DNA of 64,000 bases from Myxococcota bacterium. Its GTDB lineage: Bacteria > Myxococcota_A > Polyangia > Nannocystales > Nannocystaceae. This document shows positions 19,747 to 28,893 of this stretch, piece after piece. Position numbers and translations under genes: made by a program. Position 1 is the first letter of the stretch. Each line of letters starts with the position of its first letter. Location of the stretch: NCBI GenBank assembly GCA_039028615.1, contig JBCCHT010000011.1, positions 160,001 to 224,000 on the forward strand, read 5' to 3'. The notes under the pieces were generated by a model. That model worked only from the letters and a program-made list of their open reading frames with translations, was not told the origin of the DNA and searched no databases.

Positions 19747-20520
19747 TCAGGCCCCGAGCGCGGCCTGCTGCGGTGCCGCCTCGAGCAGCGCGGGCTGACG
19801 CTTGACGTAGCTCCAGCTGCGCTTGAGCGCGGCGCGTTGGTTGGGCTGCAGGTGCTTGCCCGCGACCCGCCGCGAGATGCCGTTGCGCTGGCTGTCGACG
19901 GCGAGGCCGAAGCAGGCCTCGGGCATGGAAAGGCCCGCGCGCAGCGACTTGAGGTCGATGCCGCAGCCGCCCCCACAGCACGCACTTTCGTAGACATAGG
20001 CGCCGTTGGCCACCCACACGCCCAGGCCCAGCACGATGGCGGCGAGCTCGGCGTCACCTTCCAGGTCCTCGGGGTCATCGACGAGCGAACCGCCGGCCAA
20101 GTGCACGGCGATGCGACCGAGCTCGCGGGCCACACTGCCGAGCGCCAGCTCGGGCACCTTGAAGATGGCGGGCACGGCGACGATCACCAGGTCGTTGCTC
20201 TTGGCGAAGGTGTGCACCATCTGCCCGACGGGATTGCCCAGCGGCTCGTAGCCGTGCTTCGAAGGCGGATCGTCGGGGTCGAGTTCGACCAAACTGAACT
20301 CGACATCCTTTTGGCCGATCTCCGCTTGCACGCCGCACATCAGCTCGAACAGGTCGTCGAGATCGCGCGGCTCGTCGATCGTGGTCTTGGTGATCAGACG
20401 ACCCTTGCGAGCCGCCGGACCGAGCCGTGCCGCGTGATCACGGAGGCCGTCGGCGACCCATGCGCGGGCATCATCAGAGGGCAGGAAGTCTACGTTCGGC
20501 GTGTCGGAAAACCCCAACAT
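19747..20520 (-). CDS. Hypothetical protein, possibly a degenerate zincin-like fold with a CCGGGC motif
   Basis: VARELGR sits where AHELGH would be expected; followed by AIVLGLGVWVAN; CCGGGCG. Confidence 0.65.
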   Translation of the reverse strand: MLGFSDTPNVDFLPSDDARAWVADGLRDHAARLGPAARKGRLITKTTIDEPRDLDDLFELMCGVQAEIGQKDVEFSLVELDPDDPPSKHGYEPLGNPVGQMVHTFAKSNDLVIVAVPAIFKVPELALGSVARELGRIAVHLAGGSLVDDPEDLEGDAELAAIVLGLGVWVANGAYVYESACCGGGCGIDLKSLRAGLSMPEACFGLAVDSQRNGISRRVAGKHLQPNQRAALKRSWSYVKRQPALLEAAPQQAALGA

Positions 20521-20751
20521 CGCTCGGCAGCATAGCCGCCGGTCGGAAGGCCTGCCACGGGCGGGGTCGCGGTTTACCCCCGGCCGCCCCGAGGTCCGAC
20601 ACGGCCCGAAACCGGCCCAGCGATTGCGGGAAACGTCCGGCAGGTCACACTTTATGTAGGGCTTTGTTCGCCCTCGATTCGTAGAGGTAGCGGCATCTCT
20701 TACCCATCACACAGCGTTTTGCGAGCCAGGCGCCGCGGGGACCAACCCACC

Positions 20752-21552
20752 GTGAGCCGCCCGTTCGCAGACGCAGTCGCACAGTCGCGCCTTGCGCGCA
20801 ACGGACGACTGCTGCCCCGCTTGGGCCTGTGGCTCGGCGTCGTGGCTCTATGGATGGGCATCGGCCTGCTGCCGAGCACGGCGGAGGCCCGCGGGCGCCG
20901 CGTGGTGCCCGATCTCCGCAACCCGTCCGAGGTCAGCCTGCACGCCAATCGGCGCATGACCACCGTCGGGCTCACCGTGCACGTGGCCTCGAGAGACGGC
21001 GTACCCGTCGCCTCGCGCCGTCAGATCGTGCAGTGGATCGAGCGCGCCAACGAGGCCCTCGACCCCTTCGACATCGAGGTCCAGCTCCATCGGCAAGTGC
21101 CGATGACCGGCTACACCCGCGTCACCCGTCGCAAGCAGCGGCGACAGCTCGCCTCCATGGCCGAGTACGACGGCACGATCCACGTGTTCGTGGTCGAGAG
21201 CCTCGACGAGCTTCGCGTCGCGGGCCTGCGGCGCCGGGTTCGTGGCCTGCACTGGCGCTACCGCGGCCTCAGCCGAGAGTACCGCCAGCGCGAGTACGTG
21301 GTCGTCACCCTCGGTGCCCCTCGCACCACCTTCGCCCACGAGATCGGCCACCTGCTCGGCCTGCGCCACAGCAACGACGATCGCAACATCATGTGCAGCT
21401 GTCGGCGAGGCTCCAACCTTCGCTTCAACGAAGAACAAGGCGCCATCATGAAGGTCGGCGTGGGTCGCTTCCTGTCCCGACAGCAGCAAGCCCAAGCCCG
21501 CGTGCAGGGTCAGCGCCGCCGCAACCTCGACCGCGCCCGTCGTCGGCCCTGA
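20752..21552 (+). CDS. Secreted metzincin (matrixin-like) metallopeptidase
   Basis: HEIGHLLGLRH zinc motif with Met-turn NIM; signal peptide ending AEA. Start uncertain. Confidence 0.8.
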   Translation: MSRPFADAVAQSRLARNGRLLPRLGLWLGVVALWMGIGLLPSTAEARGRRVVPDLRNPSEVSLHANRRMTTVGLTVHVASRDGVPVASRRQIVQWIERANEALDPFDIEVQLHRQVPMTGYTRVTRRKQRRQLASMAEYDGTIHVFVVESLDELRVAGLRRRVRGLHWRYRGLSREYRQREYVVVTLGAPRTTFAHEIGHLLGLRHSNDDRNIMCSCRRGSNLRFNEEQGAIMKVGVGRFLSRQQQAQARVQGQRRRNLDRARRRP

Positions 21553-21596
21553 GCCGCGCGAGGCGGCTACTCGAGCAGCGCTCGCAGCTCGTCGCG
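21552..21596. repeat. Left copy of an exact 45-bp direct repeat
   Basis: agccgcgcgaggcggctactcgagcagcgctcgcagctcgtcgcg, identical to 25909-25953. Confidence 0.95.
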
Positions 21597-21672
21597 CGAC
21601 ACGGCAACCTGAGCCGCGCAGGGCCGCTAGTCATGCCGCGCCGCACCACCCACAGATTTCCCACGCTAGGTT

Positions 21673-22629
21673 CTACTCGACCAGCACCCTCGTACCGCAA
21701 AACCGATGCTGCGGAAGCACACGCCGTTTCGGCGGACGCCTACTCATCACATGAAGGTACGTCACAGATGCTTCCAAGAGCGCCACAACACCCAGTGCTA
21801 GAGCGTGCGGTTTTGGACCGAGAGGAACGAGACAGAAGTTTGACTCCGAACCGCGTGGCACCAACTCCCGAACGGCAGTAGCGACATCAACTACAGCCTC
21901 CAACGGAGCACGTACCACATTGCGGGCCTGCTCCAACACCAAGCTATTCGTCTCGAGCACTCTGCCAACCGAACTCGCTTCCACTCCAGGATCAGCCAAC
22001 AATGCGTGAACGGCATGAGGTTGAAGCACCTCCAGCAACGCCCCCGACTGAGCACCATCGTAGCCCAAGCCGATCAAAAACTCCTCACGATCGCTTTCAA
22101 TGCCAGCCCCTTCGAAACCAGGAATCGCATAGATATCATCGACCTCCGCGGCATCCCAGTTTCCACAGTCATCGCGTTGGCCCAGATCATACACAAACAC
22201 GACTTCTGCAGGAGCAACAAGACACGCCAACGAAAGCATGCCAACATAGTACGGCTTCGGAAAGCAGCTGTAGTCGACAAGAACCCGAGCCATTCCGTCG
22301 CGTCGCTCCGACACAAGGCGACGGACCTCACGAAAGCACCGTGCGTAATGCGCAATCGGGAGTTCGAGGACATCCGGCATAATCCGGCGCATCTCAACGT
22401 CAACGTTCCTGCGAACATTGTCGTCTTTTCTCTCCTCGAACAGCACCCCCAACCCAACACCCGAGAAAACCCTACGAAACCGAGAAAAAGCTGAACGAGC
22501 TCTTGGCTCAAAGCTCGATGCAGCTAACGCAACATCAAACTCAGAGTCTTCAATCTCCTCAATTTCCTCATGCGTAAGGTCTGAGACTACAACCTGCCGC
22601 CCCCGCCATCGGCCAACCAAACTACTCAC
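21673..22629 (-). CDS. Uncharacterised protein, predicted tandem CARF-like Rossmann domains
   Basis: GTG at 22629 with GGGAGG 5 nt upstream; overlaps the ATPase stop by 8 nt. Two similar halves: ALAASSFEPR..VLVDYSCFPKP..VFVY and LIGLGYDG..LVPLGPKP..TYLHV. Confidence 0.7.
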   Translation of the reverse strand: MSSLVGRWRGRQVVVSDLTHEEIEEIEDSEFDVALAASSFEPRARSAFSRFRRVFSGVGLGVLFEERKDDNVRRNVDVEMRRIMPDVLELPIAHYARCFREVRRLVSERRDGMARVLVDYSCFPKPYYVGMLSLACLVAPAEVVFVYDLGQRDDCGNWDAAEVDDIYAIPGFEGAGIESDREEFLIGLGYDGAQSGALLEVLQPHAVHALLADPGVEASSVGRVLETNSLVLEQARNVVRAPLEAVVDVATAVRELVPRGSESNFCLVPLGPKPHALALGVVALLEASVTYLHVMSRRPPKRRVLPQHRFCGTRVLVE

Positions 22630-24331
22630 CGCTACCTCCCAGACCGAGCGGTAGTTGATACGCCAAAGGCACAGCCTCACCTTTCCTTAAAGCTAGCCAG
22701 AACTTCGGTGCCAAGCCAAAGGAAAGCCAATATTGATGATAGGCCTGAGGAAACCCATCCCTTTCATCGAACTCCCAGGGGCAAAGGACCCCATAGGCGA
22801 TTGAAGTTTGAAGAACCAGAAGCTCCTCGCCTTCGTATTTCGACAAATCGAAAGAAACAGAACAAGAATCACGAACAACGCCATCAGCACGATGAAGACG
22901 ACGCTCCAACATATCACCAATAAACTCTACAAATCGCACGACACTTTTTCCACAACGAGGCAGTGAACTCAGGCGATTAAAGGCTCCTTCTGCAGCTTCC
23001 CTTATCACCGTTGACTGCACACGCATATCCACGAAGCGATCTGTTTCAGCCGCGACGAAGACCCTGTCCATCAAACGAAGAAACCGACGGGGAATACCAT
23101 CAGACGCAGCTACCAGATCATTCCAGCCACCGTACACAGCAGGCTCAGCAGCACCTCGACTGCCGGTTCTAAGCAAACGCATTGCGACCGAAGGCACGTA
23201 CTGCCTAGCGGAGTCTGAGTCAGTCTTCTTTTCCTCAAACGGAAGCAACACCTGCATATCCGAGGGTTGAAGCCGCGCAAAGAAGGCATGTGCATTGCTA
23301 TCAGTCTCCAAAAACTCGGCTGCGCGCTCTCGCAGACTAGAACCACCGAGCCAAGCATCTGGTTTCTGATGTATCTCTGCGCCAGGATGCGCACGCACTC
23401 TTTTCCCGTATACATCCAGACAAAAACGCGCAGTAGATTCGCTTTTTGGATCTAAATACAGGGCAACATATTCGAAGTCTTCACCAGGAACAAGCGGATT
23501 ATTCTCCGCCTGGGTTTCTAGTGTTTTATGACCATGCGGCAAACAAGCCAACTTGAACACCAATGGAAACGACACATTCCGCACCGCTGTGTTTACATGG
23601 AGTTGTTGTCGCACGGAGAGATTATCAAGCTCATCCAGACCAAACACCCATATAACCGGAAGGCTCCGTCCAAGGGATTGATCCAGCTCGGATTGAATCA
23701 GCGCCACAGCTGCGGCAATGGGATCAAAAAAGCCGCTAAGGAGCACTCCTTCCGGTGCCTGGACGTCGTCGCCGAACGCCCCTCGGAGGCAAGCGTCATG
23801 TATCTGCTGCTGGGCTTTACTCAGCCGTCCTCTAAGGTCCCGAACGCCGAAATAGCCTCCTCCATTTATGTCACAGAAGAACTGAGATCCTAGAATCGCG
23901 GCCGCACGCGCCTCCAGCTCAACCCCATTCAGGCCATAGACGGTCCCAACATACTCGCAGAATCGGCTAACGGCTGCGACGAATCGGTCGGCAACCAAAA
24001 GATTGAGGGCGAAAGCAAACAGAACATCACGTCGGCCATCCGAAATCCAACCGCGGCGCTGGAAGCCAGCGACCCAACGCTGACCAAGGGGCACATAGGT
24101 CCCCACCGTGAGCGGTCGCCCCCCCTTTTCAATCTCGTCGACCTTGGGTGGCCTGGTAATCCAGCGAAGAAGTGTAGATTTTCCTGACCCACGGCACCCC
24201 TGAATAATGTGAGTTCTTCCATCCTGAAGGTCCCCCAATTTCGGGCGCTCGCAATACGTGTCGTAGACGTATTCATCGAGCATGCGTTCTGCTCGACGTA
24301 GCCGGAACGGGTTTCTATCTTCCTTAGACAT
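22622..24331 (-). CDS. ORC/CDC6-like (STAND-related) P-loop ATPase
   Basis: N-terminal NPF; Walker A IIQGCRGSGKST; Walker B WVFGLDELD; GIPRRF (GxPR); C-terminal region resembling a winged helix. Confidence 0.85.
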   Translation of the reverse strand: MSKEDRNPFRLRRAERMLDEYVYDTYCERPKLGDLQDGRTHIIQGCRGSGKSTLLRWITRPPKVDEIEKGGRPLTVGTYVPLGQRWVAGFQRRGWISDGRRDVLFAFALNLLVADRFVAAVSRFCEYVGTVYGLNGVELEARAAAILGSQFFCDINGGGYFGVRDLRGRLSKAQQQIHDACLRGAFGDDVQAPEGVLLSGFFDPIAAAVALIQSELDQSLGRSLPVIWVFGLDELDNLSVRQQLHVNTAVRNVSFPLVFKLACLPHGHKTLETQAENNPLVPGEDFEYVALYLDPKSESTARFCLDVYGKRVRAHPGAEIHQKPDAWLGGSSLRERAAEFLETDSNAHAFFARLQPSDMQVLLPFEEKKTDSDSARQYVPSVAMRLLRTGSRGAAEPAVYGGWNDLVAASDGIPRRFLRLMDRVFVAAETDRFVDMRVQSTVIREAAEGAFNRLSSLPRCGKSVVRFVEFIGDMLERRLHRADGVVRDSCSVSFDLSKYEGEELLVLQTSIAYGVLCPWEFDERDGFPQAYHQYWLSFGLAPKFWLALRKGEAVPLAYQLPLGLGGSGE

Positions 24332-25574
24332 GAGATGGAAAAACCTTCCAATACGGAAGATCCTGTCCGACGTCGGTGGCTGTCAACCCACGCACGTTGG
24401 ATTCCTCGACGACGAGTTCACGCAGAATCGTGGTTTCCAGACCATACAACTCAGACTCCCTTTCTAGCGTCCGCCCCAGGTGTGGCGCGGAGCTGCTGTC
24501 ATCTAGGATGCGCCCCACGTGAAGACGTGCGTCGTCAAGAGTCGTCGCACGTCCGAACCGGAAGACGGCGGGGTTCTCAGGATCCGACGGAGGCCTCCAT
24601 CCCGAAGCCGCCTTTTCTATCGTCCGAACCAATCCGTACGTAACACCAGAATCACGACCGGCCACATCAATGCGATGGACCGCACAGCGAGTGTTCCCTC
24701 CGCCTCGCTCGCTTGGTACAGTAGCGAGGGACGCAGCACCGAACACGTGCGCCTGATGGCCCTGTGTACCAGTTTCCCGAAGATATGATCGCTCATGGCG
24801 GTGGCCATGAAGAACCAGATCGATCTTACATCGCTCGACGAAATCTGACAGTGCTGCCGAATTTGTACAAACACTAAAATCGCGCCGACCAGCCCCATCA
24901 GCGCCGGGCTTAGTGTGATGATGCAACACCAACACCCGAAGATCAATGGAAGAAGAAAGAACACCACTCTCTTCAAGGCAGCTCAACTGCCATGGGTCAA
25001 TGTGGCCAGCGTGGAGGTTCACATCATAGTCTTCCCTACAGGCTGAATTTATCCCAAGAATCGCCATACGGCCGACCGTGGACCAATGCACAAAGCCGGC
25101 GACACCATCAAGCGAGTACGGATGCCTTTGATCCGTAGATAGCCCCTCAACCCTCGAGCAAAAACTGAGGTACGGACTAAAGCGCATTGAACGAAATCCC
25201 GAATCGTTATCTTCACCAAACGACACTGCTTCTTTCGGCTCATCAGGCAAAGACAACTTAGTCAGCGCCCATGCAACATCGTGATTCCCAGGCACCGTGA
25301 AGACGGGCGTAGGCACTGAAGACCCCCATAATCTCCCCAGTTCTCGGCAAAACTCTTCCGCTTGCCAAAATTCATACGGTGATGCAGATGTGGTAATGTC
25401 TCCAGAGAGCACGACAACATCAGGGCGTTCCCATGCCTTCAACGCCTCTAGAAGTTCCTTAAAGAGAGGATCTCTCAGAACGGAAGGCGGGTCCGAAGGG
25501 TCGGTAGGAGAAGCCAGACACAACTTACCGAATTGAACGTCGGAAAGATGAAGGATGCTGCCCATGGATTTCAT
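24324..25574 (-). CDS. Calcineurin-like metallophosphoesterase (CpdA/Icc-like)
   Basis: ILHLSDVQFG, VLSGDIT, PGNHD, VLHHH, LHGHRH; stop overlaps the ATPase start by 8 nt. Confidence 0.9.
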   Translation of the reverse strand: MKSMGSILHLSDVQFGKLCLASPTDPSDPPSVLRDPLFKELLEALKAWERPDVVVLSGDITTSASPYEFWQAEEFCRELGRLWGSSVPTPVFTVPGNHDVAWALTKLSLPDEPKEAVSFGEDNDSGFRSMRFSPYLSFCSRVEGLSTDQRHPYSLDGVAGFVHWSTVGRMAILGINSACREDYDVNLHAGHIDPWQLSCLEESGVLSSSIDLRVLVLHHHTKPGADGAGRRDFSVCTNSAALSDFVERCKIDLVLHGHRHERSYLRETGTQGHQAHVFGAASLATVPSERGGGNTRCAVHRIDVAGRDSGVTYGLVRTIEKAASGWRPPSDPENPAVFRFGRATTLDDARLHVGRILDDSSSAPHLGRTLERESELYGLETTILRELVVEESNVRGLTATDVGQDLPYWKVFPSHV

Positions 25575-25597
25575 ACAATGGTCACCCGGCGCGGCTC

Positions 25598-25626
25598 ATT
25601 CTAGGGTAGGCAGAATTTGTTCTCAA
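25598..25626 (-). promoter_or_regulatory. Sigma70-like promoter for the islet operon
   Basis: Minus strand reads TTGAGA-N17-TAGAAT, 23 nt upstream of the phosphoesterase ATG. Confidence 0.65.
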
Positions 25627-25923
25627 TAACCGGTTTTCTGTATTCTAGCCGGCTGCTGGGGCGTATGCGGAACACTCAGAAACACCTACCTGAACGTATT
25701 GCTTGGAGGAAGTGCACGCGAACACAGAAAGCACTGAAGCCTCGTCGAACTGCGTCATGGGGCGCTTTTGATTCGAGATGCGTCACGACGGAGCATCGGC
25801 ACGACGCATTTTGCAAAGGCCCGTTCGTGCCAACTGTCAGTAGTTCGCACCTCCTCGTACTTTCCTGCGGACGGCAAAGACGAACACAGGCGAATAGGCA
25901 AATAGACCAGCCGCGCGAGGCGG

Positions 25924-28893
<2,970 letters not shown>

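Follow-up and report, generated by a model that had tools for sequence, protein, structure and literature searches.

A methylase-less cassette of phosphoesterase, ORC-CDC6-like ATPase and tandem CARF genes in an acquired islet of a Myxococcota genome: a candidate nucleotide-centred immune module

We analysed a stretch of 64,000 nucleotides from a Myxococcota bacterium of the family Nannocystaceae (contig JBCCHT010000011.1, positions 160,001 to 224,000; hereafter the window). We found in it a low-GC islet with three minus-strand genes, named A, B and C (Table 1), which encode a calcineurin-like phosphoesterase, an ORC-CDC6-like AAA+ ATPase and a stand-alone tandem CARF protein. The same triad recurs in diverse bacterial phyla, usually beside a DNA methylase gene. 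We are confident that the window carries a deeply divergent, methylase-less member of this unnamed methylase/effector/ORC-CDC6-like/CARF6 class. The explanation that we favour overall, and hold tentatively, is that the acquired islet encodes a methylase-less, nucleotide-centred, immune-type module of three proteins. An immune function of the cassette is probable.

The three genes appear to be translationally coupled. A and B overlap by 8 nt at 24324-24331 (ATGTCTAA), and B and C by 8 nt at 22622-22629 (GTGAGTAG). The GTG start of C has a GGGAGG Shine-Dalgarno-like run five bases upstream. The promoter site ahead of A agrees with the sigma-70 consensus at 10/12 positions and is the best of 4 sites (shuffles expect 1.8 +/- 1.3), as a consensus match only. 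The guanine-plus-cytosine (GC) content of the islet is 54.2%, against 69.7% and 68.6% in the 10-kb flanks, and GC at third codon positions is 50-55% in A, B and C against 89% in the adjoining SNF2 gene. The list of open reading frames (ORFs) gives no fourth gene. A previous reading of this DNA from the letters alone (the sequence-only reading) had described three minus-strand genes with 8-nt overlaps, a TTGAGA-N17-TAGAAT promoter, a GC content far below that of the flanks and an islet holding nothing else, and each of these features was found as described.

B matches PF24389 (ORC-CDC6-like) over its full length (E 1.3e-73, 249 bits against a cut-off of 27; residues 7-556 against profile positions 1-571). 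The Walker A residues G45, R47, G48, G50 and K51, the Walker B residues D233 and E234, and R415 are invariant in 36 aligned homologues, and P414, which with R415 belongs to the GxPR motif, is nearly so; the first reading had likewise seen intact Walker A/B and GxPR motifs in the ATPase. No PADLOC profile matches B, and no relative of B was found among the PDB sequences.

Ten PADLOC ‘CARF6’ profiles match C, the best being PDLC01915 (E 1.4e-22). C has no match in Pfam, and a profile of C retrieved nothing from the PDB sequences. The AlphaFold2 (AF2) model of C, made from 60 sequences, has a predicted local distance difference test score (pLDDT) of 95.4 and a predicted template modelling score of 0.94. 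Among 48,161 PDB representatives compared with this model (VIA structure comparison), the closest is Can1, a nuclease with two CARF domains (6sce_A; Z 13.0, root-mean-square deviation (rmsd) 3.4, 227 residues aligned, model residues 30-300). The second half of C resembles single CARF domains (Cam1, Z 11.5; Csm6, Can2 and Card1, Z 9.4-10.9), and SAVED domains follow with Z 7-8. Sequence identity in these CARF and SAVED matches is 6-14%. The top rows of a Foldseek search, tandem universal stress protein and KCC C-terminal domain structures, superpose on C with a TM score of 0.22-0.25 and an rmsd of 16-18, and the CARF matches are preferred. The invariant residues of C (E41, R43, D119, Y147, G189, N228, P269, G271, P272 and K273) follow strands 33-38, 114-119, 182-187 and 264-269, the first and fourth strands of each half. 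The region after the first and fourth strands is the ligand site of CARF domains.

Structure prediction supports binding between B and C. The predicted complex scored 0.84 (runs 0.85, 0.84 and 0.84), and the best of 3 controls scored 0.00. A score of 0.84 was reached by 116/157 solved complexes and 2/215 mismatched pairs, counts that hold only roughly because we used our own alignments. At least 80% of contacts are common to the runs, and the partner has a pLDDT of at least 86. On the C side, the predicted interface comprises residues 93-103, 133-137, 160-182 and 192-203. On the B side, it comprises residue 47 and residues 79-95, 111-115 and 167-187 of the ATPase domain, together with residues 453-462.

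A matches Metallophos (PF00149, E 1.9e-15), with the phosphoesterase domain starting at residue 5. Its best NCBIfam match is DS9_1_antiphage (E 7.3e-24, 84.5 bits against a cut-off of 420), and DS8_antiphage also matches (E 3.4e-8, 31.7 bits against a cut-off of 790). From these scores, A is a relative of the DS9_1/DS8 anti-phage phosphoesterases rather than a member. The AF2 model of A (36-sequence alignment, pLDDT 85.5) consists of the phosphoesterase core and a helix-helix-helix-strand-strand unit at residues 346-413. The PF24408 model (‘wHTH-Calcineurin_assc’) scores on 2/8 aligned homologues and not on A itself. In the Foldseek list of A, YydB comes first, followed by GpdQ, Rv0805, Lmo2642 and SMPDL3A/B, with Mre11 lower; this order suggests a phosphodiesterase acting on small molecules or nucleotides, not a nuclease acting on DNA. 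The PDB sequence search gave only generic phosphoesterases. As a separate observation, the top Foldseek match (9a6c_B) is an integrative model of Bacillus subtilis YydD-YydB, a metallophosphoesterase with a partner protein, and hints at another phosphoesterase-plus-partner module. The motifs GD (58-59), GNHD (96-99), HHH (218-220) and GHxH (256-260) of A are invariant among its homologues. Four of the five motifs of the PF00149 metal site are intact. The fifth, motif I, reads D12-V-Q14 in A, where 93% of 30 aligned homologues have D-x-H. The sequence-only reading was right that GD, GNHD and GHxH are kept and had overlooked this DVQ. Its identities for the three proteins hold, with A as Metallophos, B as PF24389 and C as a CARF6 protein with a tandem-CARF fold.

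The triad is conserved far beyond this bacterium. The C family comprises 425 clusters at 50% identity (E <= 1e-3), and the best 150 of these are nearly all stand-alone proteins of ~290-350 aa, with a few shorter fragments. A genome scan with one genome per species gave 39 loci and a separate metagenome scan gave 24 (loci carry L numbers and genomes G numbers below). The 39 loci come from Acidobacteriota, Pseudomonadota, Bacteroidota, Chloroflexota, Gemmatimonadota, Verrucomicrobiota, Nitrospirota, Thermodesulfobacteriota, Planctomycetota, Actinomycetota and others, at least ten phyla in all. A, B and C occur in the window's order and strand in 29 of these 39 unrelated loci, so the triad is not a chance arrangement. 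In six loci the contig ends within or beside the cassette, with A cut in L033 and L041, B cut in L019, and C at the end in L026, L044 and L047; L052 and L053 are variant cassettes. The 24 metagenome loci comprise 9 with A-B-C, 4 with B cut, 3 with C at a contig end, 7 variants and 1 with C but without B; L081 and L085 look like one sequence. The closest relative of the window's C in the metagenome scan is at most 33% identical. Within ~3 kb, the neighbours are often of defence or mobile-element families (MmeI-type restriction-modification (R-M), AbiV, Abi_2, GmrSD, ThsB-TIR with caspase, NERD, HipA, PIN, relaxase, type IV secretion system coupling protein, integrase and transposases).

A D12-class N6-adenine methylase gene (PF02086) lies beside the triad in 27/29 complete genome loci, upstream of A in 26 of them and downstream of C in L022. 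Such a gene also occurs in 8/9 metagenome A-B-C loci. The methylases of L015, L023, L027 and L032 were identified by family searches of the genomes and by a hidden Markov model (HMM) run over stop-to-stop frames; the match in L027 is weak (E 3e-4). The two complete genome loci without a methylase, in Vibrio proteolyticus (L031) and Cedecea (L048), form one clade. Both genomes have a canonical Dam elsewhere, with 25-34% identity to the cassette methylases. In variant cassettes (L053, L088, L089 and L092; L090 is cut), a C5-cytosine methylase is combined with a phosphoribosyltransferase (PRTase)-CE effector (PF24390), a PF24389 ATPase and a relative of C. A further arrangement is seen in L086/L087 (2001-7522), with an N6/N4 methylase, a 148-aa protein without a family match, a 719-aa PF24389 ATPase (E 4e-112) and a distant relative of C. 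Given these D12 and C5 or N6/N4 forms, we define the class as a methylase, a swappable nucleotide-type effector, an ORC-like ATPase and a tandem CARF protein. In the C5-methylase-linked L052 (3641-4571; the same as L091), no open frame was found, within the range tried, for the ~0.9-kb slot between methylase and ATPase, where the effector is either unannotated or broken. The methylase also corrects the first reading in one respect. That reading would have been refuted, in its own terms, by homologues that do not co-occur as a triad, are not enriched near defence genes and give no phage phenotype. The triad is conserved across phyla, so this objection falls, and defence or mobile-element genes often adjoin the loci. 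It had also called the module ‘self-contained’, and this is not supported: the canonical cassette has a fourth gene, the methylase, which the window lacks.

The window agrees with the class in its three families and in their order, strand and coupling. B is ORC-CDC6-like over its full length, with the CARF6 gene directly downstream and the calcineurin-like gene directly upstream, and C carries the same conserved pocket. In the class at large, the methylase is joined by a CE effector, PF24389 and CARF6 (PDLC01912-01923), and the effector is either calcineurin-like with a PF24408 winged helix-turn-helix, which does not score on the window's A, or PRTase-CE. The window differs in the missing adjacent methylase, in the DxQ of A, and in a separate, long branch of B. 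In an IQ-TREE phylogeny of 36 B proteins, which comes from a short search with SH-aLRT as the sole support measure and with a warning from the program of long branches meeting, the window's B groups with that of its only close relative, a metagenome locus (L069), at 40% identity and with a support of 99. The A proteins of these two loci are only 35% identical, and both have the DxQ and HAG substitutions. Since the substitutions are common to proteins so far apart, they look like a lineage trait under selection rather than decay. The L069 contig ends 154 nt upstream of A. With two loci, one of them barely informative, the window/L069 lineage may be methylase-less as a rule. Within the class, the methylase-less form is rare.

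Only one PF02086 gene occurs in the host genome; it lies on another contig (G000:C2:8281-9375; L054/L063), between two 2-hydroxyacid dehydrogenase genes. It is kept in 5/5 congeners and in 11/12 genomes of the same family, with 55-79% identity. Because it is conserved across genus and family, we regard it as a resident orphan methylase.

Parts of the C pocket follow the type of methylase. E41, R43, D119, Y147, G189 and a PxGPKPH motif form a core that is constant across cassette types, except that E41 is Asp in the single N6/N4-linked sequence. The Dam-linked C proteins mostly have Y120, N228, A212 and G174 (two of eight shown differ at 174). The C5-methylase-linked C proteins have I/V, mostly H, P and R at the same positions. 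The window's C carries the Dam-type set. As judged from the alignment, this pattern would fit a constant phosphate/sugar site with base-specific contacts around it.

The islet is a recent, recombinase-less, horizontally acquired insertion at the terminator of an SNF2-family helicase gene, accompanied by a 45-bp duplication that keeps the helicase gene intact. SNF2 orthologues are found in 5/5 congeners with 80-84% DNA identity, and in congeners the metalloprotease-like gene directly abuts the SNF2 3' end. In one of them (G004), the counterparts of window positions 20093-21581 and of the SNF2 3' end (25921-26500) lie 45 nt apart, against 4.3 kb in the window, and G003 of the same genus shows the empty arrangement too. 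The C-family profile matched 0/20 relatives, including 0/5 congeners (completeness 72-95%), and the C protein had no match in 400 further genomes sampled from the phylum. The composition, the empty sites and these two distributions together indicate a foreign origin. The 334-bp leader occurs once in the genome, B found no plasmid match by tblastn at 1e-8, a viral contig scan gave no match, and no Rfam family matched. The direct repeats recall a site-specific integrative element; of the recombinase families, only PF00589 (tyrosine recombinase) was looked for, and it has no match in the window. Beside the left 45-bp repeat lies a second degenerate repeat/terminator copy (65%, 21586-21619) in addition to that of Table 1, and the degenerate copies may be left over from a previous integration site or represent a hairpin-type target. 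Congeners differ in what lies between the metalloprotease-like gene and the 3' end of SNF2: G004 and G003 have an empty site, and native-GC DNA occupies it in G005 (a 375-aa ORF, L006 417-1544) and G001 (~0.8 kb extra, L008 668-1501).

Table 1. Coordinates of the cassette, its islet and the flanking features in the window
Feature	Position	Strand	Description
Gene A, predicted effector	24324-25574	-	416 aa; calcineurin-like phosphoesterase at ~residues 1-300 and winged-helix-like part at 346-413
Gene B, predicted switch or scaffold	22622-24331	-	569 aa; ORC-CDC6-like AAA+ ATPase
Gene C, predicted nucleotide sensor	21673-22629	-	318 aa, GTG start; stand-alone tandem CARF
Sigma-70-like promoter match TTGAGA-17-TAGAAT	25598..25626	-	~24 nt upstream of A
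Islet-specific DNA	21597..25908	.	4,312 bp; low GC; orthologous site in congeners G004 and G003 without islet
Left 45-bp direct repeat, duplicated copy	21552..21596	.	Repeat search, family D3, 100% identity, spacing 4357
Right 45-bp direct repeat	25909..25953	.	True 3' end of SNF2 gene: last codons, stop, terminator hairpin
Terminator-like hairpin	25926-25908		Within right repeat
Degenerate extra repeat/terminator copy at inner end of islet	21608..21641	.	79%, family D1
SNF2-family helicase, target gene	25924..28893	-	PF00176 E 5e-59 and PF00271
Metalloprotease-like flanking gene	20719..21552	+	Weak metallopeptidase Pfam matches; synteny in L004 and L005

Relatives of the catalytic domain of A have proven roles in immunity. 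In DS-8 (a metallophosphatase-NACHT fusion) and DS-9 (a metallophosphatase with a HAD protein), mutation of the phosphatase site abolishes defence, according to a preprint (10.1101/2025.01.08.631726). For a DS-9-type system, another describes a dependence on Dam, activation by N6-methyl-dAMP (m6dAMP) from Dam-methylated host DNA and destruction of NAD+ by an NAD+ diphosphatase activity (10.1101/2025.11.05.686725). A further study reports conversion of dADP to dAMP after the HAD step (10.64898/2026.01.15.699771). Both of the latter groups note relatives linked to adenine methylases (10.1101/2025.11.05.686725, 10.64898/2026.01.15.699771). On our own reading of the preprint descriptions, Metis type I, DS-9 and PUA-Cal-HAD (MisA/MisB) are one system. 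A shares with Metis type I/DS-9 a homologous calcineurin-like effector domain, and by analogy the two may also share a dependence on, or link to, adenine methylation and a logic of abortive nucleotide hydrolysis. The islet has neither the PUA sensor nor the HAD partner gene of that system; an ORC-like ATPase and a tandem CARF protein stand in their place. DS-8, which is validated in Escherichia coli, likewise combines a metallophosphatase with a STAND/ORC-type NTPase switch and is weakly homologous to A. However, DS-8 is one fusion protein, whereas the window has separate, translationally coupled genes and a third, CARF component.

The analogy with Metis and the DS systems, the methylase linkage, the swappable non-nuclease effectors and the conserved CARF pocket without a nearby cyclase lead us to propose the following mechanism. 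C would sit on the ATPase domain of B, as in the predicted complex. A small nucleotide ligand would bind the pocket of C, made up of the loops that follow beta-1 and beta-4 in both Rossmann-like halves, and B would then switch or oligomerise with ATP. This would unleash A, a putative binuclear metallophosphodiesterase hydrolysing nucleotides (of the NAD+, dNDP/dNTP or cyclic-nucleotide class), and depletion of the nucleotide pool would abort the phage infection. As in Metis, the likeliest ligand would be a methylated deoxynucleotide freed by degradation of host DNA that carries N6-methyladenine (m6A). The enzyme setting this mark here would be the orphan D12 methylase resident in the host, not one encoded by the islet. 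A methylated nucleotide as the trigger is, however, a doubtful part of this proposal.

A number of observations weigh against the proposed mechanism. To our knowledge, CARF ligands are cyclic or linear oligoadenylates and not mononucleotides. The co-variation of pocket and methylase is suggestive only, because phylogeny confounds it: each methylase class is also a clade of its own. No methylase gene lies in the islet, and the host D12 methylase has no BLASTP similarity (1e-5) to the cassette methylases or to enteric-type Dam. PF02086 also matches in 5-6 of 14 control genomes, three or four of them besides the two enterics/others, which makes the host copy weak support. The window and L069 form a long branch apart from all Dam-linked cassettes, and no methylase link is seen there: in L069, a high-GC, host-like ORF ends 45 nt upstream of A and is unmatched by the methylase HMM (E 0.43). 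The DS9_1 alignment to A spans only positions 194-447 of the 486 of the profile, and A lacks the N-terminal PUA domain, the m6dAMP reader of Metis. Gln in place of the metal-binding His in motif I may, to judge from the alignment, alter the activity of A. The model also gives a DNA-binding-type ATPase no specific job. Finally, we found no experimental test of any class member in the literature searched.

The main alternative is that the cassette reads DNA directly. In such an epigenetic self/non-self scheme, in the manner of BREX or R-M but without a nuclease, B would scan DNA and unmethylated invader DNA would fire the effector; the methylase (here that of the host) would silence the system on self DNA, and C would be only a modulator. 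The near-universal methylase linkage and the winged-helix tail on A are in line with it, and so is the predicted docking of C on an insert of B after strand 2 (residues 79-95). This insert region faces DNA in ORC-type ATPases. BrxC, an ORC/Cdc6-clade ATPase, functions in the methylation-based BREX system, as a preprint describes (10.1101/2025.10.09.681413). The window has such an ATPase in methylase-linked defence in common with BREX (BrxC/BrxX), but PglZ, BrxL, BrxA and BrxB are absent, B has 569 aa against ~1,200 aa in BrxC, and the effector is a small-molecule phosphoesterase. A copy without a methylase would moreover poison its own cell if host methylation did not cover precisely the sites read by B, yet the host methylase is not detectably similar to the cassette methylases, and the Dam proteins of the two methylase-less relatives are likewise distant from them. 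Nucleotide-pool effectors cannot tell which DNA triggered them, and the strictly conserved, ligand-type pocket of C would be left without a role. We consider the self/non-self scheme unlikely.

Alternatively, this copy might be inert or a non-immune passenger, or serve only the maintenance (addiction) of a mobile element. The islet has no methylase; it also has no recombinase and so may be a remnant, and besides the DVQ of motif I several other near-invariant family positions differ. On the other hand, all three frames are open at full family length, and the translational coupling and the promoter match are kept. The other metal ligands of A, the ATPase motifs of B and the pocket of C are intact, and the DxQ and HAG substitutions are shared with L069 as described above. 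A passenger is therefore an improbable account of the islet.

C might also sense a cyclic oligonucleotide of another system (type III CRISPR or CBASS), or degrade it as a ring nuclease, and the triad would then be an accessory effector or a damper. The best structural matches of C are all CARF or SAVED proteins that bind cyclic oligoadenylates (Can1, Cam1, Csm6, Can2, Card1 and Cap4/5), and the structural neighbours of A include the cyclic-nucleotide phosphodiesterases Rv0805 and SMPDL3A. With the Can1/CARF/SAVED sensors, the model of C shares two CARF-like Rossmann domains per chain and a predicted pseudo-dimeric pocket; C differs from them in having no fused effector domain. The cyclase is the difficulty. 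Neither a Cas10 nor a CD-NTase family was detected among the 194 neighbour ORFs scanned at the 39 genome loci, where the only cyclases are two PAS-GGDEF-EAL proteins ~2-3 kb away. The window's own genome (96.7% complete) has no match to the two families tried, SMODS and Cmr2-type Cas10; Csm1-type Cas10 was not searched. The methylase linkage would also be left unexplained, and we rate dependence on a foreign cyclase as slightly more improbable still. Hardly credible is the idea that A and B form a nuclease of the SbcCD/Mre11-Rad50 kind which processes DNA ends in repair or restriction, with A cutting the DNA: A weakly matches a PADLOC ‘Effector, Endonuclease’ profile (E 1.4e-7) and TIGR00619 sbcD (E 3.2e-5, 23.9 bits where the cut-off is 77.65) and Mre11 chains occur in its Foldseek list, but these chains rank below the small-molecule enzymes, sbcD-level similarity is lacking, B is an ORC-type AAA+ protein and no SMC/Rad50-type partner, and the slot of A in sister cassettes is filled by a phosphoribosyltransferase-type effector, not a nuclease.

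Returning to the nucleotide-sensing module, no named and validated system matches it in full among the PADLOC and NCBIfam profiles, as the sequence-only reading had said. The suspicion that surveys may already list the system was also well placed, in that its parts are catalogued as PF24389, PF24390, PF24408 and the PADLOC CARF6 profiles. Nicastro et al. (2023) and Makarova et al. (2020) are said to have defined the ‘CE’ effector and CARF6 families, and the class has presumably been predicted in comparative-genomic surveys. A description or name of the cassette was not found in the literature searched; preprint supplements, such as the ‘type III Metis’ table (10.1101/2025.11.05.686725), may list such operons. 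What the present instance contributes is a clean insertion with empty congener sites, a divergent lineage that lacks the methylase and carries a changed metal motif, a host in which a single orphan adenine methylase is conserved, a predicted B-C interface with a high score, and pocket positions that vary with the methylase class.

This unnamed class is widespread, and its components have relatives of proven immune function. Three current themes of phage defence come together in it, namely methylation, CARF sensing and nucleotide depletion. If its CARF protein reads a methylated nucleotide, CARF biology extends beyond cyclic oligoadenylates, and the sensing of genome degradation evolved more than once. 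The copy in the window amounts to a ‘minus-methylase’ experiment made by nature, in a host whose one orphan adenine methylase is conserved. The sharp boundaries of the islet should make cloning easy, and the predicted B-C interface and the co-varying pocket positions are targets for mutagenesis. A more speculative idea, which we think unlikely to be right, is that the window and L069 represent a methylase-independent lineage parasitising the m6A methylome of the host. Its stand-alone, cyclase-less tandem CARF protein would take a methylated (deoxy)mononucleotide, or a short fragment from the breakdown of self DNA, as a danger signal and relay it via the bound ORC-like ATPase to the nucleotide-destroying phosphodiesterase with its unusual DxQ metal site. 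This would be the first CARF-fold sensor of a modified nucleotide derived from DNA damage and a second, independent invention of Metis-type ‘genome degradation sensing’.

A few of the loci hold C in other surroundings. In the metagenome locus L073 (1124-2245), the C gene has no B within 1.1 kb upstream. L034 (2660-3631) has a full C gene beside a TfoX gene, without A or B. In L049 (6944-7483), the neighbours of a truncated C are an HTH_38 gene and a gene for a type I HsdR. In L026 (1502-2866), on a Planctomycetota contig where the upstream part of the cassette is cut off, genes for a ThsB-like TIR protein and a caspase-family protein directly follow C.

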